Below the pieces are notes generated by a model. The model was given only the letters and a program-made list of their open reading frames with translations, ran no database searches and had not been told where the DNA came from. Positions 16,921-61,361 of a stretch of 64,000 bases of DNA are shown here, in pieces; position 1 is the stretch's first letter, and each line of letters opens with the position of its first letter. The position numbers and the translations under genes were made by a program. Source of the DNA: Hydrurus foetidus (taxonomy: Eukaryota); the NCBI GenBank assembly GCA_900617105.1, contig UYFQ01000057.1, forward strand, positions 1 through 64,000, given 5' to 3'.

Positions 16921-18218
16921 AGGTAGCCGTTGTCGGCGCTGGCTGGGCCGGCATGGCGGCGGCTGTCACAGCCACGCAAGCCGGCCACCACGCTACAGTT
17001 TTTGAAGCAGCCCGCGCAGTCGGGGGGCGGGCTAGAGCCCTGAATGGCACATTGCCGGACGGCACGCCCGTGGTGCTGGACAACGGCCAGCACATCCTGA
17101 TTGGCGCCTACAGCGAAACCCTGAAACTCATGCGCACCGTGGGCGTGGACCCACAGCAAACGCTCTTACGCCTGCCGCTCACGCTGCTGTTCCCCGATGG
17201 CGAGGGTTTGGCCCTGCCCGACTGGCCCAGCCCGCTGGATGCGCTGGCTGGCATTGCACGCGCCAAGGGCTGGACGTGGGCCGACAAGTGGAGTCTGCTG
17301 CGCGCCGCCACCGGCTGGCAGTTGGGCGGTTTTGCCTGTGCGCCGCAGACCAGTGTGGCCGACCTGTGCCGCACGCTAACGCCCACCGTGCTGGCCACCA
17401 TGATCGACCCGCTGTGCGTGTCCGCCCTCAACACGCCGGCCGCGCGCGCCAGCGGCCAGGTGTTTCTGACCGTGCTGCGCGACTCGCTGTTTGGCGGGCG
17501 CGGCAGCTCCAATCTGCTCTTGCCACGCACCGACCTGGCCACGCTGTTCCCCCAGGCGGCGGCCGACTGGCTGCAAGCGCAGGGTGGTGTGGTGCAGTTG
17601 GGCACGCGGGTGGAGCAGGTCGCCCCCCAACCCACCGGCTCCGGTTGGCTGGTCAACGGCCAACCCTTTGACGCCGTGTTGTGGGCCACTGCATCATCCA
17701 ATGCGGCTCTAGCCCTCGTGGAATATGCGCAAGCAGCTCCTGAAACCATAGCAAGTGCCATGCGCACCTGGGCTGCCACGGCGCAGGCGCTGCAGTTTGA
17801 AGCCATTGCCACCATCTACACCCATGGCACCGGCGCGCGCCTGAGCCACCCCATGCTGGCGCTGCGCAGCGATGCCGCCCACCCCGCGCAGTTTGTCTTT
17901 GACCGCGGCCAGCTCGGCGGCCAGTCCGGCGGTGTTCAGGGGCTGCTGGCCTTTGTGGTCAGCGCCAGCGAGGGCGACCGCGACACCCTGCAAACCCAGG
18001 TGCTGGCCCAGGCGCAAGCCCAGTTGGGCCTGGCGCTCACGCCGCTGCAAACCGTGGTGGAAAAACGCGCCACCTTTGCCTGCACACCAGGGCTGGTGCG
18101 GCCACCCCAGGCCATTGCACCCGGCCTATGGGCCTGTGGTGACTATGTAGATGGCCCCTACCCCGCCACACTGGAAGGTGCGGTGCGCAGCGGCGTGGCT
18201 GCCGCAGGCCTTTTATAA
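16917..18218 (+). CDS. hpnE: Hydroxysqualene dehydroxylase HpnE (FAD oxidoreductase)
   Basis: GAGWAG, DNGQHILIGAY, YPATLEGAVRSG; ATGA overlap with hpnD. Confidence 0.95.
   Translation: MKVAVVGAGWAGMAAAVTATQAGHHATVFEAARAVGGRARALNGTLPDGTPVVLDNGQHILIGAYSETLKLMRTVGVDPQQTLLRLPLTLLFPDGEGLALPDWPSPLDALAGIARAKGWTWADKWSLLRAATGWQLGGFACAPQTSVADLCRTLTPTVLATMIDPLCVSALNTPAARASGQVFLTVLRDSLFGGRGSSNLLLPRTDLATLFPQAAADWLQAQGGVVQLGTRVEQVAPQPTGSGWLVNGQPFDAVLWATASSNAALALVEYAQAAPETIASAMRTWAATAQALQFEAIATIYTHGTGARLSHPMLALRSDAAHPAQFVFDRGQLGGQSGGVQGLLAFVVSASEGDRDTLQTQVLAQAQAQLGLALTPLQTVVEKRATFACTPGLVRPPQAIAPGLWACGDYVDGPYPATLEGAVRSGVAAAGLL
17708..17753 (-). repeat. 46-bp dispersed repeat, copy inside hpnE
   Basis: Reverse complement TGCTATGGTTTCAGGAGCTGCTTGCGCATATTCCACGAGGGCTAGA. 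Confidence 0.8.
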
Positions 18219-24797: not shown

Positions 24798-25901
24798 ATG
24801 CTTCTCACCTCCCCCTTCCAGCCCGAGCCCCCCTACACCCATGGCCAGGTGCCCCGCACGGCGGTGCTGCTGTGCAACCTGGGCACGCCCGATGCGCCCA
24901 CGCCGCAGGCCGTGCGCCGCTACCTGGCGGAGTTTTTGAGCGACCCGCGCGTGGTGGAGATTCCACGCCTGCTGTGGCTGCTGATCCTGCACGGCATCAT
25001 TTTGCGCACGCGCCCGGCCAAGTCGGCCGCCAAGTACGCCAGCGTGTGGACGCCCGAGGGCTCGCCGCTCAAGGTGTGGACCGAAAAACAAGCCAAGCTG
25101 CTACAGGGCTGGCTGGGCCAGCGCAACCACCAGGTCAAGGTGCGCTGGGCCATGCGCTACGGCAGCACGTCGATTGCCTCGCAGCTGGACGCCATGAAGG
25201 CCGAGGGCGTCACCCGCGTGCTCATCGTGCCGGCCTACCCGCAGTACAGCGGCACCACCACCGCCAGCCTGTGCGACGCGGTGTACGCCTGGGCCGCCAA
25301 GACCCGCGCCATTCCCGAGTTCCGCTTCATCAACCGCTACCACGACGACGCGGGCTACATCGCCGCCCTGGCCAGCAGCATCCAGCGCTACTGGAAGGTC
25401 AATGGAAAGCCCGACAAACTGCTCATGAGCTTTCACGGTGTGCCCGAGCGCACGCTGCAGCTGGGCGACATGTACCACTGTGAATGCCACAAGACCGCAC
25501 GCCTGCTGGCAGAGGCATTGAACCTTAGCAAAGACCAATACCAGGTCAGCTTTCAGTCCCGTCTGGGCCGCGCCAAGTGGCTGGAGCCCTACACCGAACC
25601 CACGCTCATCGCCATGGGCAAGGCCGGCGTGAAACGCGTGGACGTGGTCTGCCCCGGCTTCAGCAGCGACTGCCTGGAGACCCTGGAAGAAATCAACATG
25701 GAAGCCCGCGAGGCCTACCTACACGCAGGCGGCAAAGAGTTCCACTACATCCCCTGCCTGAACGACGACCCCGAGTGGATCACCGCGCTGTGCAACCTGA
25801 CGCAGAAGCATCTGCAAGGCTGGCCCACGCTAGAGGTGGCGGATGCGGCGGTGCTGCAGGCGTCAAGGAATGCGGCGGTGAAGATGGGGGCGAAGCAGTA
25901 G
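24798..25901 (+). CDS. hemH: Ferrochelatase
   Basis: NLGTP, YPQYS, SFHGVP, FQSR, DCLETLEEI. Confidence 0.97.
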   Translation: MLLTSPFQPEPPYTHGQVPRTAVLLCNLGTPDAPTPQAVRRYLAEFLSDPRVVEIPRLLWLLILHGIILRTRPAKSAAKYASVWTPEGSPLKVWTEKQAKLLQGWLGQRNHQVKVRWAMRYGSTSIASQLDAMKAEGVTRVLIVPAYPQYSGTTTASLCDAVYAWAAKTRAIPEFRFINRYHDDAGYIAALASSIQRYWKVNGKPDKLLMSFHGVPERTLQLGDMYHCECHKTARLLAEALNLSKDQYQVSFQSRLGRAKWLEPYTEPTLIAMGKAGVKRVDVVCPGFSSDCLETLEEINMEAREAYLHAGGKEFHYIPCLNDDPEWITALCNLTQKHLQGWPTLEVADAAVLQASRNAAVKMGAKQ

Positions 25902-25924
25902 TCTCTTCATTACTGCTTTAGGCC

Positions 25925-25970
25925 TCTAGCCCCCGTGGAATATGCGCTAGCAGCTACTAAAGTGATAGCA
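25925..25970 (-). repeat. 46-bp dispersed repeat
   Basis: Reverse complement TGCTATCACTTTAGTAGCTGCTAGCGCATATTCCACGGGGGCTAGA. Confidence 0.8.
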
Positions 25971-25972
25971 AG

Positions 25973-26194
25973 TCAGTGCACCTGGTCTGCCACCAGCTTG
26001 TCTGCCGCCTGAACGGCCTCATCCCGAGTCGGCCAGGTCTTGTCGCTGCCTTGCAACGGCGGCAGCGACTCCACGTGAATGACCTCGATGGTCCAAGGAC
26101 CATCAGGGTAGTGACACAGCTTGGCCATGTAATGCCGCCCGCCCGCGACGCCTGGGACGTATTCCTCGATCGGTTCCGGTTCTTCTATTTCCAT
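25973..26194 (-). CDS. Hypothetical protein
   Basis: 73-aa ORF with a purine-rich RBS and protein-like composition. Confidence 0.6.
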   Translation of the reverse strand: MEIEEPEPIEEYVPGVAGGRHYMAKLCHYPDGPWTIEVIHVESLPPLQGSDKTWPTRDEAVQAADKLVADQVH

Positions 26195-26241
26195 CAGGTT
26201 TCTTTCCAAATTTCGATTCTGCGCAACCCACTGTGCGCTGC

Positions 26242-26451
26242 TCAATCCTTGAGATCCACGCCCAAAGCGCTCAGCTTCTTCGCATACGAGTCCCTGCGCT
26301 TTGCGGCCTTTGCCGCTGTTTCGACAGCCACCTGAATCGCCTTGGGCCCTTTTTTCCCCGCCGTTTTGACCAATCCCAACTTATGCGCAGCCTCGGCCTC
26401 CGCTCTGCGGAAAGTGGCGATGAGTTCGGCATGGGTAGCGGATGGATTCAC
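26242..26451 (-). CDS. Small basic helical hypothetical protein
   Basis: 69-aa Ala/Lys-rich ORF. Confidence 0.55.
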   Translation of the reverse strand: MNPSATHAELIATFRRAEAEAAHKLGLVKTAGKKGPKAIQVAVETAAKAAKRRDSYAKKLSALGVDLKD

Positions 26452-26745
26452 GGGGAGTTCTCGGTGTTTAAAGCGCTATTTTCTGCGTTTTTTCGAGCAC
26501 ATCACCGTTTAGGGCGAGATGACGTTGCCGGGCTGTGTGTGATTGGTTTAGAAAGTGTGGGCGGGCAGCTTTGCGGCGTTTTCTGTCGTCCACTAAGTAG
26601 GTCCAATTGCCAGCTTTCAGCGCTTTGGCACCTAGAATCTGACAATCGCAAGCTGCGGGGTTTGTCGGAATTTTTATACCTGTATAAAAAGGTCGAAAAT
26701 TCGAGGAAACCTAAGCTGCAAGCCACTTACAAGAGGTTTTCGTGT

Positions 26746-26806
26746 CCAGAATATCCCGCAGCACCCAGAATATCCTGCAGTTTTTGCGGTATACATTACG
26801 TTAAAG
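26746..26806 (+). other. attI-like recombination site
   Basis: GGTATAC-N5-GTTAAAG core (26788-26806) preceded by two 16-bp direct repeats CCAGAATATCCYGCAG; no attC hairpin upstream. Confidence 0.7.
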
Positions 26807-26814
26807 CGCATTCC

Positions 26815-27144
26815 ATGGTGCCCTCAGAATCCCTTTCCAGTGAAGTTGTTTGTTCCGCGCTCAGCGATTGGGGCAGAGGTGATCTTTCAGATGAACAAAT
26901 GCATTTCTGGGCCACAAACAACTATTTCCCCGCGCACCAGGTTGTTGCTCCCAATGAGCCAGACCACGTTGCATTGGCCATCGGTATCGTCCTAACGGAG
27001 TTTGAATGCGCTAAACCGCCTTACAAATTTGGCAGGGCAGTCGCGGCATATGCGTTGGCACTTATCGAGTCAGACGCGAACGAGTTTGAAGCTTGCAAGG
27101 CGGACTTCTTTGATTCACTGCGATTGCACAAACATGCCCTTTAA
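26815..27144 (+). CDS. Cassette 1 hypothetical protein (109 aa)
   Basis: ATG just after the crossover GTT; stop inside R'' of the attC. Confidence 0.75.
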   Translation: MVPSESLSSEVVCSALSDWGRGDLSDEQMHFWATNNYFPAHQVVAPNEPDHVALAIGIVLTEFECAKPPYKFGRAVAAYALALIESDANEFEACKADFFDSLRLHKHAL

Positions 27145-27225
27145 CATGCCAATCGACACGGACCCACAACAGCAGGAAGCGGCTTCGCCGCAAAGTGTTG
27201 TGGTCCGGTCATCTTCACGTTCGAC
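27139..27225 (+). repeat. attC site 1
   Basis: CTTTAAC...GTTCGAC, 87 bp, internal palindrome. Confidence 0.92.
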
Positions 27226-27266
27226 GTCACAGAAGTACAGCGCTTCTATTACCTGAAAGGAATGCG

Positions 27267-27677
27267 ATGACCACTCTATCAAGTCGTACAAAAGACAACG
27301 CGTGGAAGCTGAAGACGCCGCCGGGCACCTCTGAGTACACGATGCATACCGACGAGAAAGATGGAAAGCAAATCCTCGTCTGCACGGTGGGCAGTACCGT
27401 GTTGAATTACGATGCGCGGTGCATTGACGACCTCCATGCCATGCTCAAGAAAGCTGGTGACTGGGTTGAACTTGGTGGTGCCGATGAGCAAAAACCCGCT
27501 AAAGATGGAACCGTAGAGGCTTGGGGCCGTTCGGAATCGAACCCGGTCGGTGGCTGGTATGGTATGAAAAAAGGCCTGCGCGGTCGTTTCGGAGTTTATG
27601 TGCCCCCGCTCATGGAAGCGCTCGGATTGTGTGAGCTTGAGCACAACGCCAAGAACAACCGAATGCGCGCCAAGTGA
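27267..27677 (+). CDS. Cassette 2 conserved hypothetical protein (possibly DUF6855-like)
   Basis: AAGGA RBS; WKLKTPPGTSEY and NPVGGWYG..KGLRGRFG; family assigned from memory only. Confidence 0.8.
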   Translation: MTTLSSRTKDNAWKLKTPPGTSEYTMHTDEKDGKQILVCTVGSTVLNYDARCIDDLHAMLKKAGDWVELGGADEQKPAKDGTVEAWGRSESNPVGGWYGMKKGLRGRFGVYVPPLMEALGLCELEHNAKNNRMRAK

Positions 27678-27678
27678 T

Positions 27679-27765
27679 GCCGAACATTTCGCTCGGCGCG
27701 GACACGCAGCAGCACAATGCCGCTTCGCGGCCCATGCTGCGTGCCGGGCAGCTTTGACGTTGAGG
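27679..27765 (+). repeat. attC site 2 (R' interrupted by an IS after GTT)
   Basis: GCCGAAC...GTT|GAGG, 87 bp. Confidence 0.88.
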
Positions 27766-29554
27766 CTGTAAAAAAACTCTCAATTTGCCAATTTCCGTCA
27801 GCCCCCGCGTGGTCTAAAACGTTGTATTTATATCCCCAACGTACCCCGCAGAACATGGCCCGCTACAAACCCCAAGACCGTAACAGCATGCTGCTGCCAG
27901 TCGTGTTGTCCGAACAAATCGTCCCCGGCAGCTTTGCCTTTGCACTGGACTACCTGGTCGACAACGAGCTTGACCTCACGGCCATGGATGCCAAGTTCAA
28001 GAACGATGAGGTAGGAGCCAGTGCCTACGACCCCCGCGTCATGCTCAAGATCGTCTTGCTGGCCTACAGCCAGGGCCTGATCTCCAGCCGCACCATTGAA
28101 CAAGCTTGTGCGCGCAACGTCCAATTCATCGCCATCAGTGGCGACAGCCAACCCAGCCACACCCACATCGCCAAGTTCGTCTGCAGCCTCAGCGACCAGA
28201 TCAAACCCCTATTCAGCCAAGTCCTGATGACCTGCGATGCCCAAGGCTTGATCGGACGCGAGATGTTTGCCATCGACGGCGTCAAGCTCCCCAGCAATGC
28301 CAGCAAAGAGCGCAGCGGCACCCATGAAGAACTGCGCCACCGCGCTGACCGTTTGGACCAGGCTGCAGACAAGATACTGGCGCTGCACCAAGCCCAAGAC
28401 AAACAAGGTAGTGACCAGCCGCTGGAACCCAAGCGTCAAGCCCAAATGGACGCCCTGCGCAAAGAAGCCAAACGCACACGGGAATTCTTGGCCACCACTC
28501 CCAAGCGTATTGGCAGTAAAGGCAAAGAGCTCAAGTCCAACGTCACCGATCCACAGAGCGCCAAGATGGCCACCAGCAAAGGCGTCATGCAAGGCTACGC
28601 GGCACAGGCTGCTGTGGACAGTGCAAACCAAGTCATCATTGCAGCGGATGTGATTGGCTCCGGCTCCGAGCAAGCCATGCTGCTACCTATGATTGAGCAG
28701 GCAAGCCCCTTTCGCACACCAGATACCCTGGTCACCGCCGATGCGGGGTACCACAGCGATACCAACATTGCGCAACTGATGCAGCAAGGCATCCCCGCCA
28801 TGGTGGCTGACAACCAGATGCGCGCCCGTGATGAGCGCTTTGCGGAACAAGACAAATACAAAGGTAAGCCCGATCCACTGTCCGAGAAGAAAGCCACCGG
28901 GCAGGAGAAGGAGGTCAAACGGTTGGGCCCCAAGGACTTCACCTTCAATGATGACAACACGGCTACATGCCCGGCGGGCCAGGTGATGACCAGTGCAGGC
29001 ACCATCTACTTCACTGCAAATGGACAGCCTTATCAGCGCTACACGGCCAAAGCAAGAGACTGCGAATCGTGCCCCTGCAAAACGCAATGTCTCAAAGGCC
29101 CCATGAAGCCCAACGATGGACGCGGCAGAAGCGTCACCCGCTTTGAGCCCAAACCCAAAGACCCAACCAACCCCAGTGAGCGCATGCGCCAAGCGATTGA
29201 CTCACCCCGGGGACGCCAGCTTTACAGTCAACGCTTTGGCACAGTGGAGCCGGTGTTTGCCAACATCCGCCACAACAAGCGCCTGACTCGGTTGAACCAC
29301 CGAGGCCGCACCAAGGTCAATACGCAGTGGAACCTGTACTGCATGGTGCATAACATTGAGAAGCTATCGAAGACGAATCTGGGATGTCAGAGGGTTCGAT
29401 AAAGAGGCCATAAGGCCCTGCAGACGCTATCAGGCTCGAAACTGAGAAAAATTGCGGCACACTTTGCGCATGAGCGCCAAATTCTTAAAAACCGATCCAC
29501 GAATCACGCACAGCCGACATGGCGGGTTTGGAAATCGGGTTTTTTTACAGCCTC
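27762..29554 (+). mobile_element. IS1182-family insertion sequence, 1793 bp
   Basis: Perfect 16-bp terminal IR GAGGCTGTAAAAAAAC; GTT duplicated on both sides. Confidence 0.93.
27855..29402 (+). CDS. IS1182-family DDE transposase (515 aa)
   Basis: YDPRVMLK..SSR.IE N-domain, AIDGVK, ADAGY, Cys-rich insert, VEPVFANI. Confidence 0.94.
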   Translation: MARYKPQDRNSMLLPVVLSEQIVPGSFAFALDYLVDNELDLTAMDAKFKNDEVGASAYDPRVMLKIVLLAYSQGLISSRTIEQACARNVQFIAISGDSQPSHTHIAKFVCSLSDQIKPLFSQVLMTCDAQGLIGREMFAIDGVKLPSNASKERSGTHEELRHRADRLDQAADKILALHQAQDKQGSDQPLEPKRQAQMDALRKEAKRTREFLATTPKRIGSKGKELKSNVTDPQSAKMATSKGVMQGYAAQAAVDSANQVIIAADVIGSGSEQAMLLPMIEQASPFRTPDTLVTADAGYHSDTNIAQLMQQGIPAMVADNQMRARDERFAEQDKYKGKPDPLSEKKATGQEKEVKRLGPKDFTFNDDNTATCPAGQVMTSAGTIYFTANGQPYQRYTAKARDCESCPCKTQCLKGPMKPNDGRGRSVTRFEPKPKDPTNPSERMRQAIDSPRGRQLYSQRFGTVEPVFANIRHNKRLTRLNHRGRTKVNTQWNLYCMVHNIEKLSKTNLGCQRVR

Positions 29555-29569
29555 GTTAGGCAGCAGAAA

Positions 29570-29983
29570 ATGCGCGCGCCCGGCCCCTTGAATAACATGA
29601 CCCAGTTGGTGTTTTGCCGCGACAACGTTGATCCTGACCTTGTGACGAACAGGCTTGGGTTGATGCCGTCAGAAACCTTAAAGCGCGGTGAACATGCAAA
29701 GACTGGCGTTAGAGCGGGGTCCCCTTCGGCGGTTGGCCTGTGGAAATTGGATCTGCCAGAGGCGGGCGAAGATCTTACGGTTGAAGAGCAATTGGCTAAG
29801 TGGGTCGAACTCCTTCAGCCAAGGTCTGCGGCGCTAAAGTGTCTGCGACAGGAGGGTTACGCGCCTTACCTAGACTGCAGAGCCGAGAGAGGCTCGTTGT
29901 CGCTTTGCATTTCGCCTTGCTTGCTCGCGTCACTTGGTGAGCTGAATGTTTCCCTTAGCATATGGCTGTATGAGCAACCGTGA
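29570..29983 (+). CDS. Cassette 3 DUF4279-like protein
   Basis: DPDLVTNRLGLMPSETLKRG...W and C-terminal LGELNVSLSIWLY pattern; start may be 29597. Confidence 0.75.
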   Translation: MRAPGPLNNMTQLVFCRDNVDPDLVTNRLGLMPSETLKRGEHAKTGVRAGSPSAVGLWKLDLPEAGEDLTVEEQLAKWVELLQPRSAALKCLRQEGYAPYLDCRAERGSLSLCISPCLLASLGELNVSLSIWLYEQP

Positions 29984-29992
29984 CAGTCAGCC

Positions 29993-30079
29993 GCCTAACG
30001 GGTCGGCCAACACAGACCCACAACAGCAGATGGCGGCTCCGCCGCATCTGTTGTGGTCTGGTTGCCTCAAACGTTGAAC
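29993..30079 (+). repeat. attC site 3
   Basis: GCCTAAC...GTTGAAC, 87 bp. Confidence 0.92.
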
Positions 30080-30704
30080 TAAACCGCTGACGCGGTGGTT
30101 GATACAAGCAGAGCGACACCATGTTGTTTGACTGAAAGTGCGAATTGACAAACTCAGGGCAACAGCGCATCTTTTGCCTTTTGGTGAACATTTCCCGGCC
30201 AGCAGACTTCGAGCGCTAGTCTCCTGCCGCTTATGACCGTCAGGCGGGCCACTGCGTGAGCCCCATCACTATTGGCGGTCCAAATGTTCGCCGGTAACAG
30301 CGCTTCTTTTGAGGACCGCCTTACGCAATAGGTATTGATCTCCATAGTGAGTTCAATTCGGTTGGGGTGCCGGGGGTGAAGCCTTTGCCTTTGAGTTGCG
30401 TAGGACGTGCTTTTTTCTATCGCAATCACTGTTGCGACTCTTAGCAATAGGGAATTGACGGTTTGTCGACCCTGGGAGCAGACTGAACAGGTCTAGTTCG
30501 CTTCGTCAGGGTCAAATCGCGACTTTTCACGATGTGAGTCGATCCTTACAATCCCCTTTATATTTGCGGGTGGTGGAACGCACCGATCCACTTCAACGCT
30601 GCACGCGGGCACCTCGCGGCGGTTCAGTCCAACATGGTTTATCAGCCGCGGGAGGCGTTTATGGTTTCTACGAGCATTGCAGCGCGGCTGATAAACGCTA
30701 ATCG
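30074..30704 (+). repeat. 631-bp apparently gene-less cassette, copy 1 (attC at 30627-30710)
   Basis: Near-identical to 30705-31335 and 32720-33350; ends in an 84-bp attC, GTCCAAC...TTTATCAGCCGCG/CGCGGCTGATAAA...GTT. Confidence 0.92.
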
Positions 30705-31335
30705 TTGAACTAAACCGCTGACGCGGTGGTTGATACAAGCAGAGCGACGCCATGTTGTTTGACTGAAAGTGCGAATTGACAAACTCAGGGCAACAGCGCA
30801 TCTTTTGCCTTTTGGTGAACATTTCCCGGCCAGCAGACTTCGAGCGCTAGTCTCCTGCCGCTTATGACCGTCAGGCGGGCCACTGCGTGAGCCCCATCAC
30901 TATTGGCGGTCCAAATGTTCGCCGGTAACAGCGCTTCTTTTGAGGACCGCCTTACGCAATAGGTATTGATCTCCATAGTGAGTTCAATTCGGTTGGGGTG
31001 CCGGGGGTGAAGCCTTTGCCTTTGAGTTGCGTAGGACGTGCTTTTTTCTATCGCAATCACTGTTGCGACTCTTAGCAATAGGGAATTGACGGTTTGTCGA
31101 CCCTGGGAGCAGACTGAACAGGTCTAGTTCGCTTCGTCAGGGCCAAATCGCGACTTTTCACGATGTGAGTCGATCCTTACAATCCCCTTTATATTTGCGG
31201 GTGGTGGAACGCACCGATCCACTTCAACGCTGCACGCGGGCACCTCGCGGCGGTTCAGTCCAACATGGTTTATCAGCCGCGGGAGGCGTTTATGGTTTCT
31301 ACGAGCATTGCAGCGCGGCTGATAAACGCTAATCG
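30705..31335 (+). repeat. 631-bp apparently gene-less cassette, copy 2 (attC at 31258-31341)
   Basis: Tandem to copy 1; two single-base differences seen. Confidence 0.92.
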
Positions 31336-31347
31336 TTAAATCGCACG

Positions 31348-31656
31348 ATGACGACCGCCGCATTTCCTAAGCTGCACTTCCGCGAGCCGTTTGTGGATAT
31401 TGTCGCATTCGAGGTTCCTCACAAGGGCTGGTACGACGGTGTCACGGTCGAACTGGAGGATGGGCGGATGGTTCCTCTGTTCTTCTATGACCCAACCCGC
31501 TTGGCCCAGGATCTCGCGTCAGATGCAGCTCAGGGCGAACCCTTTGTTGCCGAACACTTCATGGTCGTGGTGCCAGAAGTGACGGAGGCGGCCATGCGTA
31601 CTGCCATCTCACTCCTTCACAGCAAGGGCTGGTTCAATGCACGCGGTGCGACTTAA
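31348..31656 (+). CDS. Cassette 6 hypothetical protein
   Basis: ORF fills the cassette; stop lies in R''. Confidence 0.8.
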   Translation: MTTAAFPKLHFREPFVDIVAFEVPHKGWYDGVTVELEDGRMVPLFFYDPTRLAQDLASDAAQGEPFVAEHFMVVVPEVTEAAMRTAISLLHSKGWFNARGAT

Positions 31657-31737
31657 CATGCCAATGGACACGGACCCACAACAGCAGGAGGCGGCTTCGC
31701 CGCACGTGTTGGTGGTCCGGTCATCTTCACGTTAATT
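31651..31737 (+). repeat. attC site 6
   Basis: ACTTAAC...GTTAATT, 87 bp, near-identical to attC1. Confidence 0.93.
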
Positions 31738-31743
31738 CTCAAG

Positions 31744-32064
31744 ATGTACAGCTACGAAGACATCAAGGAACGCTCGGCATCAGGTACATCACTGATTCTG
31801 AGCTATACGGATGCGATGGAGATTCTGTACCTCTATGGAGAAAAATCTGTGGTCGTTTCTGGATGGGACGGATGGATCGTTCAGTCAAACGGTGGCTTAA
31901 GGATGTCTCAACGTCATCAGGGGCCAGCAGATATTTCATCAATGCCACAAAAAGCGGCAATTGCCTTGGCAAAGGGAACGATCATGCAGGCACACGTGGA
32001 GTGGGAAGTAAATCCAGAGGATAAAAATGCGCAGTTATTCTTTCATGTCCGTCTACCGAATTAA
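31744..32064 (+). CDS. Cassette 7 hypothetical protein
   Basis: ORF fills the cassette; stop lies in R''. Confidence 0.8.
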   Translation: MYSYEDIKERSASGTSLILSYTDAMEILYLYGEKSVVVSGWDGWIVQSNGGLRMSQRHQGPADISSMPQKAAIALAKGTIMQAHVEWEVNPEDKNAQLFFHVRLPN

Positions 32065-32145
32065 CAGGTTGCTCGACACGGACACGCAACCAAAGACTGC
32101 CCCTTCGCGGCAAGGGTTGCGCGCCTGGCAGCGCCAACGTTGGAC
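32059..32145 (+). repeat. attC site 7
   Basis: AATTAAC...GTTGGAC, 87 bp. Confidence 0.9.
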
Positions 32146-32148
32146 GAC

Positions 32149-32637
32149 ATGAAGTTCCGAGTCCAGACAACTACTGGCGGCGAAGTAGTCTTTGCTGGCG
32201 ATTCAAGGAAAGGGCGGCTTGTCTACTATGGCGTTCCCCCTGAAACAGGCCTTTGGAAAATAGACAACCCAAAATTCGAAGACTTCCTATCAGGTGAGCT
32301 TGGTCTTCGGTCCTTTGGCAGTTCCATTGAAGAGTTCGTTTTTGGACTTGAAATTGCAGAACTGGAAGAGTGGGGTCGATGGTTTAAGGAGACACGAAAC
32401 TATATGAGCTATCGCCCAAAAAGTAAGCAGATCATTTCAGTCGGGCAGATTGAGTGGAAAGACGTGAAGGAGCTTGCAGCGGACGTGCAATTTGAGCAAT
32501 TGAAATTCGCGCTGACTGTGGCAATTGAACGTATTGGCACTCTGAAGCGTAAGCCGAGTGACTTCGACTACGCAAGTTTCGGAGCCGCTGTCCAAGAGTC
32601 GTTGTCGCGCTGTACTTCGGCGATGGTGGCGGCATGA
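32149..32637 (+). CDS. Cassette 8 hypothetical protein (possibly immunity-protein-like)
   Basis: ORF fills the cassette. Confidence 0.8.
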   Translation: MKFRVQTTTGGEVVFAGDSRKGRLVYYGVPPETGLWKIDNPKFEDFLSGELGLRSFGSSIEEFVFGLEIAELEEWGRWFKETRNYMSYRPKSKQIISVGQIEWKDVKELAADVQFEQLKFALTVAIERIGTLKRKPSDFDYASFGAAVQESLSRCTSAMVAA

Positions 32638-32638
32638 C

Positions 32639-32725
32639 GTCCAACAGGTTGTTCGTCTCGGACATGCAGCGGCAGAAGGCCGCTGCGCGGCATGTGCTGC
32701 CCGCCGGACAACGCCAACGTTGAAC
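32639..32725 (+). repeat. attC site 8
   Basis: GTCCAAC...GTTGAAC, 87 bp. Confidence 0.9.
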
Positions 32726-33350
32726 TAAACCGCTGACGCGGTGGTTGATACAAGCAGAGCGACGCCATGTTGTTTGACTGAAAGTGCGAATTGACAAACT
32801 CAGGGCAACAGCGCATCTTTTGCCTTTTGGTGAACATTTCCCGGCCAGCAGACTTCGAGCGCTAGTCTCCTGCCGCTTATGACCGTCAGGCGGGCCACTG
32901 CGTGAGCCCCATCACTATTGGCGGTCCAAATGTTCGCCGGTAACAGCGCTTCTTTTGAGGACCGCCTTACGCAATAGGTATTGATCTCCATAGTGAGTTC
33001 AATTCGGTTGGGGTGCCGGGGGTGAAGCCTTTGCCTTTGAGTTGCGTAGGACGTGCTTTTTTCTATCGCAATCACTGTTGCGACTCTTAGCAATAGGGAA
33101 TTGACGGTTTGTCGACCCTGGGAGCAGACTGAACAGGTCTAGTTCGCTTCGTCAGGGTCAAATCGCGACTTTTCACGATGTGAGTCGATCCTTACAATCC
33201 CCTTTATATTTGCGGGTGGTGGAACGCACCGATCCACTTCAACGCTGCACGCGGGCACCTCGCGGCGGTTCAGTCCAACATGGTTTATCAGCCGCGGGAG
33301 GCGTTTATGGTTTCTACGAGCATTGCAGCGCGGCTGATAAACGCTAATCG
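32720..33350 (+). repeat. 631-bp apparently gene-less cassette, copy 3 (attC at 33273-33356)
   Basis: Dispersed third copy with exact cassette boundaries. Confidence 0.92.
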
Positions 33351-33375
33351 TTAAGCATCCGCTCAACAGCACAAC

Positions 33376-33840
33376 ATGAACCTCGTCCTCGAATCCTCCG
33401 AGCGTGTGCCGTTCTACACAGACATGTGCTCTACGCTCACGGCTATGGGCGTCGAAGCTACTGCGTATGACTGGTTTGTAAGTGACGTCGAGACAAATAT
33501 TGCTGTACCTGCATTAGCCGATGGTGATGTCTGGGTGACCGGCGACGAGCTCTCTCGGATGCTCTCGCACGATATTCAGTTCATCTGGGGTGTGTTCAGC
33601 GCCGTTCCGAAGGGAAAGAGATTTGAAGTTCTTGTTCCACCGGGTGCCGACGGGAATCCGAGTTTTTGGCAACCACCGGCGGCGCGACCACAATTGGAAG
33701 GGGCGTGCTTCGAGATCGTATGTTGGGACAGTTCGGCTACCGTCCTCGTGGGCGTATCGTCTTTTCAAGCTGAACGGTTTTTTGCAACGTATCCAGATGC
33801 GCTGCCTCTTTCGTCCACGTGGCCCAAGGCAAATGCTTAA
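33376..33840 (+). CDS. Cassette 10 hypothetical protein (possibly DUF2691-like)
   Basis: YDWFVSDVE, QFIWGVFSA and EIVCWDSS motifs; stop lies in R''. Confidence 0.8.
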   Translation: MNLVLESSERVPFYTDMCSTLTAMGVEATAYDWFVSDVETNIAVPALADGDVWVTGDELSRMLSHDIQFIWGVFSAVPKGKRFEVLVPPGADGNPSFWQPPAARPQLEGACFEIVCWDSSATVLVGVSSFQAERFFATYPDALPLSSTWPKANA

Positions 33841-33921
33841 CATGCCAATCGACTCGGACCCACAACAGCAGGAAGCGGCTTCGCCGCAGGTTGTTGTGGT
33901 CCGGTCATCTCCACGTTAAAC
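33835..33921 (+). repeat. attC site 10
   Basis: GCTTAAC...GTTAAAC, 87 bp, near-identical to attC1 and attC6. Confidence 0.93.
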
Positions 33922-34049
33922 CGCAAGTGCAGATCAACCATATTCAAACCGAGAGTGCACCGCTTGCTGCGTTTGGTGTCGACGCCGAAAGCTTGCTTAT
34001 CGCCGACAACGTGAATGTCCTCGTCAACCGTTTCGGTTAGCCTCCAACG
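33916..34049 (+). pseudogene. Internally deleted cassette remnant (ORF start fused to the right end of an attC)
   Basis: 134 bp between two GTTAAAC core sites; no R'' or left arm. Confidence 0.6.
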
Positions 34050-34072
34050 TTAAACCGTAGAAGAAATATCGA

Positions 34073-34107
34073 TTGATGCCAATACGTTTTGTATATACAC
34101 TTTGTAT
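34073..34107 (+). promoter_or_regulatory. sigma70 promoter and probable autorepression operator of the TA cassette
   Basis: TTGATG-N17-TACACT overlapped by two ATAC-N5-GTAT palindromes. Confidence 0.65.
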
Positions 34108-34382
34108 ATGGAGTTCACTTGGTCTGAAACGAAGCGTGCAGCGAACATCAAAGCCCATGGGCTTGACTTCCTGGATGCCGCGAGCGTTTTGAAGGCGTGA
34201 CATTTACTTTCGAGGATGACCGTTTCTCCTACTGCGAGCAACGCTTCGTTACGCTGGGCTTGCTCGCTGGCATCACAGTTTCAGTCGTACATACGGAGAG
34301 TGAACATGAAATCCGCGTCATCTCGTTCCGAAGAGCTACCAAGCGCGAGTCGCAAATCTACTTCGATGAAATCCAAAACTGA
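34108..34382 (+). pseudogene. brnT: BrnT-family toxin, frameshifted
   Basis: MEFTWSETKRAANIKAHGLDFLDAASV in one frame; FEDDR..Y.EQRFVTLG..RVISFRRATKRE in another. The shift is at the T run near 34187-34190. Confidence 0.85.
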
Positions 34383-34620
34383 TTGGGTACGCCTGAAGTC
34401 CGGCGTGGGTGAACAAAAGCCGACGTCCGAACACCCAGAGGCGAACGTAAAGCACATTGTTCGCGGCTTGGTTCGCAAAGGTTTGAAGCCGCTACCTGCC
34501 AAAGCGTCCATTTCGCTGCGCGTAGATCAAGATGTGCTTGAATGGTTCAAGGCGCAAGGGACTGGCTATCAGACACGCATCAACACTGTCCTGAGGGCCT
34601 TCCGTGACGCTTCGGTTTAA
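34366..34620 (+). CDS. brnA: BrnA-family antitoxin
   Basis: KTDWVRL and ISLRVDQDVLEWFKAQGTGYQTRINTVLR. Confidence 0.93.
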   Translation: MKSKTDWVRLKSGVGEQKPTSEHPEANVKHIVRGLVRKGLKPLPAKASISLRVDQDVLEWFKAQGTGYQTRINTVLRAFRDASV

Positions 34621-34701
34621 CAGGTTGCTCGTCGCGGACACGCAGCTGCAGTATTTCGCTTCGCGGCCGATGCTGCGCACCGTACAGCTCCGACGTTGAG
34701 G
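34615..34701 (+). repeat. Last attC site (R' runs into an IS-like end)
   Basis: GTTTAAC...GTT|GAGG, 87 bp. Confidence 0.88.
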
Positions 34702-34716
34702 TTGTAAAAAAAACTC
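34698..34716 (+). mobile_element. Relic terminal IR of a related IS1182-like element
   Basis: GAGGTTGTAAAAAAAACTC versus GAGGCTGTAAAAAAACTC at 27762; no transposase or partner IR seen. Confidence 0.7.
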
Positions 34717-34954
34717 TTCAAAGAAATTCCCTATGGATCGCATCAAAAGTCGACGCATCAGAACGCCGCATACGCCACGATCTCCAGCAAGGGAAGGGTT
34801 CGAGTACCCCCGTATCGAAGCGCTTTTTTCGTCGCCAAACAGGCAATCCCACCATTCCAGCGAATAGTAGTCATTTTAGGAAAATGAATGCCGGCTTTCC
34901 GTCTACTGAGGCCTAGACAAGCAACTGCGGCCAGCTAAGAAAATCTCCACTCAT

Positions 34955-41254: not shown

Positions 41255-41300
41255 TGCTATTGTTTTTGTAGCTTCTTGCGCAATATCCACGGGGGCTAGC
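41255..41300 (+). repeat. 46-bp dispersed repeat
   Basis: TGCTATTGTTTTTGTAGCTTCTTGCGCAATATCCACGGGGGCTAGC, between convergent genes. Confidence 0.8.
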
Positions 41301-41312
41301 GCCCTATTTCTC

Positions 41313-49969: not shown

Positions 49970-50015
49970 CACTATGAAAAAAGGAGCTGCTCCCGCATAT
50001 TCCACGCGGGCTACA
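49970..50015 (+). repeat. 46-bp dispersed repeat
   Basis: CACTATGAAAAAAGGAGCTGCTCCCGCATATTCCACGCGGGCTACA. Confidence 0.75.
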
Positions 50016-50041
50016 GCTCCTTTTAATACCTAAACGGGTGC

Positions 50042-61301: not shown

Positions 61302-61347
61302 CGCTACACTTTTAGTAGCTGCCCGCGCATACTCCACGCGGGCTAGC
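61302..61347 (+). repeat. 46-bp dispersed repeat
   Basis: CGCTACACTTTTAGTAGCTGCCCGCGCATACTCCACGCGGGCTAGC, between convergent tolA and dnaE. Confidence 0.8.
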
Positions 61348-61361
61348 GGCCTATTTCACCC

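Follow-up and report, generated by a model that had tools for sequence, protein, structure and literature searches.

Mobile elements described as homing to attC include both insertion sequences and introns. In the relevant papers, the IS1111-attC insertion sequences (ISPa21, ISPst6 and ISKpn4; IS110/IS1111 families) are a monophyletic group that occupies a fixed attC position (PMC3001079, PMC11187229), the group IIC-attC introns (S.ma.I2 and relatives) are a monophyletic subset homing to attC (PMC3001079), and both are reported to target attC near its 5' end in antisense orientation (PMC3001079, PMC11187229). A further comparison is offered by IS1272/TnSha1 of staphylococci, which belongs to the IS1182 family and for which two papers report 16-bp inverted repeats (IRs) and hairpin targets (PMC4923244, PMC5678879). 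Both papers credit palindrome targeting in the IS1182 family to Siguier 2015.

The 64-kb window analyzed here (the whole stretch of DNA, 64,000 nucleotides) contains an IS1182-family element at an attC site (Table 1). Its lineage resembles the IS1111-attC group, as presented in those sources, in being an insertion sequence (IS) lineage that targets attC at a fixed position. However, IS1111-attC elements are described there as using a DEDD enzyme guided by a seekRNA, which is encoded in a long non-coding stretch, and as inserting antisense at the attC 5' end, whereas the window element has a DDE enzyme, short non-coding ends, terminal IRs and a 3-bp duplication, and its lineage is found at R' at the 3' end, in both orientations depending on the lineage. 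Group IIC-attC introns are, by the same accounts, retroelements whose insertion, into the bottom strand, splits the gene from its attC, while the window element leaves gene and attC joined and starts the next cassette. With IS1272 it shares the family, 16-bp IRs and hairpin-forming target DNA. By the accounts cited, IS1272 lacks a primary consensus and strikes terminators, where part of the stem-loop is deleted and no duplication arises, whereas the window lineage has a CGTTA consensus, spares the hairpin and duplicates GTT. The nearest named IS1182 elements in PLSDB, ISPa7 and ISPmo1, belong to the same family but are only 24-26% identical, and unnamed elements about as distant have similar IRs.

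The initial annotation knew of no DDE element of the IS1182 family described as targeting attC, and our search agrees: no description of an IS1182 element at attC was found in the literature searched, which was mostly open-access, partly in excerpt and did not extend to ISfinder. None appears in the available passages of PMC12444791, PMC4889954, PMC13656550, 10.1101/2025.07.22.666184, 10.64898/2026.03.17.712381 or 10.1101/2022.09.11.507474. The targeting habit is real and widespread, and apparently undescribed. Homing to attC, as described for the RNA-guided IS1111 group and the group II introns, would here be reported for a DDE transposase for the first time.

The IS1182-family element of the window

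IS1182 elements carry a single ORF between terminal IRs and are about 1.3-2 kb long. The window element fits this layout, with one ORF, perfect 16-bp IRs and a length of 1793 bp. The 16-bp IR has only two exact copies in the whole 64-kb window, which are the two element ends. GTT flanks the element on both sides, its left copy being retained as the R' GTT of the upstream attC, and the ORF listing shows no interrupted ORF at the insertion site. The initial annotation had drawn the same picture of a perfect 16-bp IR, a duplicated R' GTT at the attC crossover triplet, an upstream attC that keeps its GTT and no ORF hit, and its family assignment holds as well: the transposase scored 298.8 bits against the NCBIfam model NF033551 (IS1182; cut-off 270).

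Table 1. Features of the element, its target attC and the surrounding array, in window coordinates
Feature	Position	Strand	Remarks
attI region, crossover GTT 26800-26802	26624..26803	+	70-74% identity to loci L009, L138 and L057
Cassette array, about 11 cassettes	26801..34695	+	From attI-like site to last attC
Target attC of DUF6855 cassette, R'' to R' GTT	27680..27761	+	Hairpin score 11.8
Left GTT of 3-bp duplication, identical with attC R' GTT	27759..27761	+	Integrase crossover G/TT kept
IS1182-family insertion sequence, 1793 bp	27762..29554	+	IR pair, doubled GTT, family match
Left terminal inverted repeat, 16 bp	27762..27777	+	
Transposase, 515 aa	27855..29402	+	Same direction as cassettes
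Right terminal inverted repeat	29539..29554	+	Exact reverse complement of left IR
Right GTT (29555-29557) and original outer R' bases	29555..29561	+	Now off the hairpin; begins DUF4279-gene cassette
Truncated MITE, left IR and interior	34698..34812	+	Directly after GTT of last attC

Domain matches of the transposase were to DUF772, DDE_Tnp_1 and DDE_Tnp_1_6. The domain and profile scan returned DDE families only, with no match to the IS110 family, and found in the element no reverse transcriptase/maturase ORF of the kind carried by group IIC-attC introns. The acidic residues D141, D232, D296 and E465 are kept in at least 95% of 147 clade sequences and at least 80% of 13 outgroup IS1182 sequences, and presumably include the catalytic triad, judging from known DDE motifs. 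An AlphaFold2 model of the transposase was poor (pLDDT 60.5, pTM 0.30), and the PDB held no significant match to it by sequence or by fold. A promoter-like site over the right IR (29544-29571) is within chance expectation (1 found versus 1.8 expected). A 4-bp CGTT duplication combined with an imperfect right IR was considered for the element ends and rejected, because sites with a base other than C before GTT (L006 and L048) still show the terminal C of the IR followed by GTT.

In two assembled runs (X1 and X2), from which the window may derive, the IS forms a contig of its own (27757-29559) at a depth of 64-74, versus about 36-38 for its neighbors. This hints at a second copy with the same five flanking bases on each side, although contig depth in these runs is no copy number.

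Flanks, orientation and hosts of the relatives

Homologues were collected from species genomes (79 loci) and metagenomes (80 loci), each set representing the best 80 of more than 540 relatives, and further ones from plasmids (3) and additional genome searches. The loci collected span 95% down to about 35% protein identity and lie in Burkholderiales, Alteromonadales and other genomes of the same class. After removal of duplicates and of genomes flagged as unpublished, 143 sites with both ends remained, of which 138 had GTT on both sides when read in cassette orientation, while the other 5 carried a mismatch. The transposase ran in the cassette direction at 77 of the 138 sites and in the opposite direction at 61. 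The tabulation of homologue flanks that had been proposed as a check thus came out in favor of attC-GTT.

To recognize attC beside these flanks, arm pairing was scored between an upstream AAC and the GTT, using the usual attC box names and spacer rules. A score threshold of 8, chosen after viewing the control distribution, passed 9/9 IS-free attC of the window versus 27/1165 background GTT; the resulting attC calls are those of our own heuristic and not of IntegronFinder. An earlier heuristic was too strict and was replaced, as only 1/11 window sites passed, some of them mis-positioned (45/109 IS sites versus 1/1165 controls). A strict version of the current test, applied to sites whose flank was 100 nt or longer, adds an L-box match in R' polarity. 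It was passed by 100/149 IS sites (70/99 sense, 30/50 antisense) but by none of the 164 CGTTA sites counted over 360 kb of a host genome (G003), where the loose test passes 10/164. The homologues lie at attC R' and not at unrelated sites, and the claim that this DDE element targets attC withstands the refutation proposed for it. Many of the 49/149 sites that fail the strict test are, by eye, visibly decayed, internally deleted or IS-split attC, while roughly 8-10 of the failures look by eye like plain intergenic CGTTA without a hairpin; therefore, a hairpin is not absolutely required.

The side of the attC that is struck was determined from the polarity of the extrahelical bases, a rule that is correct for 8/9 window sites. 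For the target attC of the window, the polarity (5 versus 3) places the GTT at R'. All 92 attC-positive IS sites assessed this way (62 sense, 30 antisense) were R' insertions, as were 8/8 later ones, and none among them was at R''. Elements flanked by AAC were considered as possible R'' insertions, but polarity spoke against this in all 30 that could be assessed, and intI direction did so at four loci. In the first two sets of loci, intI lies divergently upstream in nine sense loci and on the other side in four antisense loci; one locus (L077) does not fit this simple layout. At another locus (L218, near 1850), an ORF interrupts the same attC whose R' holds an IS1182 element. By a characteristic motif, this ORF looks like an IS110-type transposase, which would place two attC-targeting families at one site.

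A FastTree phylogeny of 160 transposases grouped 147 of them on a long branch away from 13 outgroups (23-27% identity), although deep supports are low and one tip (L070) comes from an unpublished genome. In this tree the sense and antisense types are interleaved as several blocks, and orientation therefore appears to have switched more than once. Orientation depends on lineage; for example, 4/4 copies in one genome (G257) are antisense. Flanking GTT or AAC occurred in 0/16 copies of distant IS1182 elements (23-27% identity). Most of these 16 outgroup copies (L224-L237) are intergenic and sit at the GGCC-type center of a recurring imperfect palindrome, which suggests a sister lineage that may home to another repeat or recombination site.

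Carriage of the clade is associated with intI. Among 301 genomes of one order, with the center genome and one unpublished genome removed and clade membership assigned by eye, intI was found in 28/34 clade carriers versus 110/265 other genomes (Fisher P = 6e-6). Copies at attC-like sites are also present in a genome (G235) that consists of a single 6.9-Mb contig without an intI match. In a plasmid collection, the clade was detected in 3 of 72,556 records (E < 1e-50), all of them marine Alteromonadales replicons; the clade is thus essentially missing from this collection, and nothing in these data links it to clinical integrons. Viral contigs contained no relative, and phage records a single match (26%). 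Hits in Chloroflexota and Methylomirabilales are on IS-only contigs that may be mis-binned and were left out of the host range.

Target recognition and competing explanations

The bases next to GTT are biased at targeted sites. The motif C-GTT-A is present in 61/68 targeted attC versus 56/126 IS-free attC of the same loci. The A after GTT is preferred even where it cannot be paired by R'' (21/25 targeted versus 14/46 free), and attC-negative sites keep the C in 39/43 and the A in 30/33 cases. To judge from these flanks, a primary sequence motif is read by the element. CGTTA is nevertheless abundant in the 360 kb of G003 (about 49 of its 164 occurrences fall outside long ORFs), and none of the background sites is at an attC, so the motif alone is insufficient. 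Moreover, a bottom-strand CGTTA occurs at R'' in 8/126 free attC, some of them doubtful, yet 0/92 insertions were found there. The CGTTA bias and the attC enrichment together imply that sequence and attC context both matter. The initial annotation had proposed structure- or sequence-guided targeting: motif and attC context are both in evidence, while recognition of the hairpin itself is our interpretation. As the second cue, the hairpin could serve, or else an extended degenerate motif covering the L' box and its spacer. Targeted attC differ from free ones in the bases of this region as well, with differences at positions -9, -7, -6, -3 and -1; the comparisons are compatible with both cues.

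A G directly after the AAC of R'' was seen in 0/92 targeted versus 16/126 free attC, so that in targets the pair adjoining the R box is open in every case. This open pair is possibly a structural cue, or else the difference possibly reflects false positives in the free set.

We put the probability at roughly 65% that an IS1182 lineage sits at the attC R' GTT and duplicates it by virtue of targeting by its own transposase, with the hairpin as a likely second cue. The DDE transposase would cut duplex DNA with a 3-bp stagger across C-GTT-A at the foot of the attC stem, and would itself do the targeting; the adjacent hairpin would likely serve as the second cue, in the form of folded or cruciform DNA and not as an extended linear motif. 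The weak folding of the target attC in the window (free-fold z of -1.6 to -2.0) counts against this explanation. The attC R' is likely a safe harbor for the element, in that insertion there leaves genes intact and preserves the crossover triplet. A guide RNA was considered as well; no motif common to the non-coding ends (~60-100 and 150-200 bp) was apparent by eye in 21-23 sequences.

A rival explanation is recognition of linear duplex DNA alone, in which CGTTA is accompanied by a degenerate 10-15-bp upstream motif that happens to coincide with the L' box and spacer, and folding is unnecessary. An upstream motif would yield the R' exclusivity, the clean duplication of 3 bp implies that the target is duplex DNA, and both the base differences at -9 to -1 and the insertions at truncated or split attC that retain only the 3' half are in keeping with it. 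The upstream biases are modest, however (no more than 59/82), and may stem from attC families particular to certain hosts, and the truncations may postdate insertion. The targets also vary widely, with an inner length of 52-107 nt (10th-90th percentile), and the plain non-attC sites have little in common beyond CGTTA. We consider a purely linear motif unlikely. An explanation without any targeting, in which insertion is broad and copies persist only where cassette arrays are selectively neutral, would be in line with the tolerance of arrays for IS (one survey reports an IS in 12% of CALIN and in 23% of complete integrons; PMC4889954). Nonetheless, neutrality cannot fix a single nucleotide position, R'' would be equally harmless yet is never hit, and the roughly 49/164 background CGTTA outside long ORFs include no attC, which makes survival alone a very improbable account.

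For the insertion step, the integrase could in principle take the place of the transposase, if an IS circle that the transposase had excised, with GTT at its junction, were recombined by IntI into attC as an attG-like site. IntI integration likewise leaves GTT on both sides and acts at R' only, orientation would be inherited, and the carriers of the clade are enriched for intI; attG sites, according to one study, need only GWT (10.1101/2022.09.11.507474), and a locus (L081) that represents a circle or tandem dimer keeps the idea alive. Against this, the C before and the A after GTT, independent of R'' pairing, are not expected of IntI, the plain CGTTA insertions have no attC or attI partner, and no insertion site was recognized as attI. 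In addition, GCT on both sides of one MITE (described below) fits target copying, and G235 carries copies at attC-like sites without an intI match. Insertion through IntI is therefore improbable in our view.

Returning to targeting by the transposase, a more far-reaching version of it, which we hold tentatively and at slightly less than even odds, is that a protein-only DDE transposase reads the polarity of the folded attC, the structure derived from single-stranded DNA on which IntI also acts, and cuts the crossover triplet, that cassettes become IntI-shuttled carriers of the IS, and that sister IS1182 lineages home to other palindromic repeats. If true, the reading of folded attC by a DDE enzyme would be a third independent invention of attC homing. 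For IS1182, the lineage offers a clean test of how structured DNA is recognized by a DDE enzyme, with a defined target, a defined cut position and a defined orientation. A transposase that is site-specific and non-disruptive could also serve as a tool.

The MITE, the cassette array and cassette mobility

A related IS end at the last attC (34695-34716) had been reported in the initial annotation, which concluded that targeting occurred twice. The end is real and follows GTT, and there are two insertions at GTT, but the second is a truncated MITE of originally ~159 bp and not another IS copy. Of a MITE measuring 157-164 bp, the sequence from 34698 retains the left ~115 bp, the right end being absent in the window; it is 88% identical to a complete 159-bp MITE flanked by GTT/GTT at another locus (L292). 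One assembled run (X3) has a contig that tracks the window to 34814 and then enters the right IR. The stretch from 34698 matched 8/401 genomes. Seven complete homologues of 157-164 bp with both IRs were recovered, and most complete copies follow attC-like sequence by eye; five are flanked by GTT/GTT, one by GTT/GCT and one by GCT/GCT, the last being the pattern expected of a copied target. MITEs with the same ends as the IS are thus found at the same site, and in this array the same target received two hits, one from the IS and the other from a MITE whose right end was subsequently lost.

Insertion alters the attC it follows. The outer R' bases now come from the IR, and at least 2/4 of them match R'' in 17/73 sites after insertion versus 64/73 before. 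Among free attC, 56/126 match R'' at no more than one outer base. From these pairings, the upstream attC probably still recombines after insertion, if perhaps with lower efficiency. The geometry of integrons makes the IS the 5' part of the downstream cassette, as the initial annotation had reasoned. IntI would then excise the IS together with the downstream cassette (27760-30073), and such hitchhiking, also proposed in the initial annotation, would need IntI in trans at the window locus. Among 128 sites, no pair shared the same downstream cassette start under different upstream attC, which is a weak test of hitchhiking. Circle or empty-site junctions were absent from the contigs listed from four assembled runs, which is no evidence of absence. 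As the IS and MITEs join the next cassette, they bear on cassette annotation, and they also bear on the decay or fragmentation of chromosomal arrays.

End-to-end junctions (right IR, triplet, left IR) were observed at four loci (L081, L035, L139 and L172). L081 comprises a single IS and GTT and has a terminal repeat of 127 nt, as in a circle or tandem dimer. At L035 and L139, the upstream end of the junction differs from the element's own right end.

A complete integron comprises intI, attI and an attC array, of which the window holds an attI-like site and the array. A tblastn search with IntI gave no match beside the attI-like site or anywhere in the 64-kb window, while the attI-like regions of two of its relatives (L138 and L057) adjoin intI. 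The stretch 25900-26800 retains attI and the sequence upstream of it but lacks intI; two short minus-strand ORFs, downstream of a ferrochelatase gene, lie at the place expected for intI. A 631-bp cassette is present three times (30074-30704, 30705-31335 and 32720-33350; 99.7-99.8% identity), with an atypical attC and no ORF of more than about 110 aa. On this near-identity, the cassettes were evidently duplicated recently, though the window is without intI. The last cassette (34080-34620) encodes a BrnA-type antitoxin; the toxin-like frame upstream of it contains no ORF of at least 70 aa and may be frameshifted. A second GTT lies 134 bp past the attC at 33915 and has the same six downstream bases, and the intervening sequence (33918-34051) is possibly the remnant of a deleted cassette. 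Outside the array, REP-like dispersed repeats are located at 25919-25993, 17707-17779, 41255-41306, 49982-50016 and 61311-61353.
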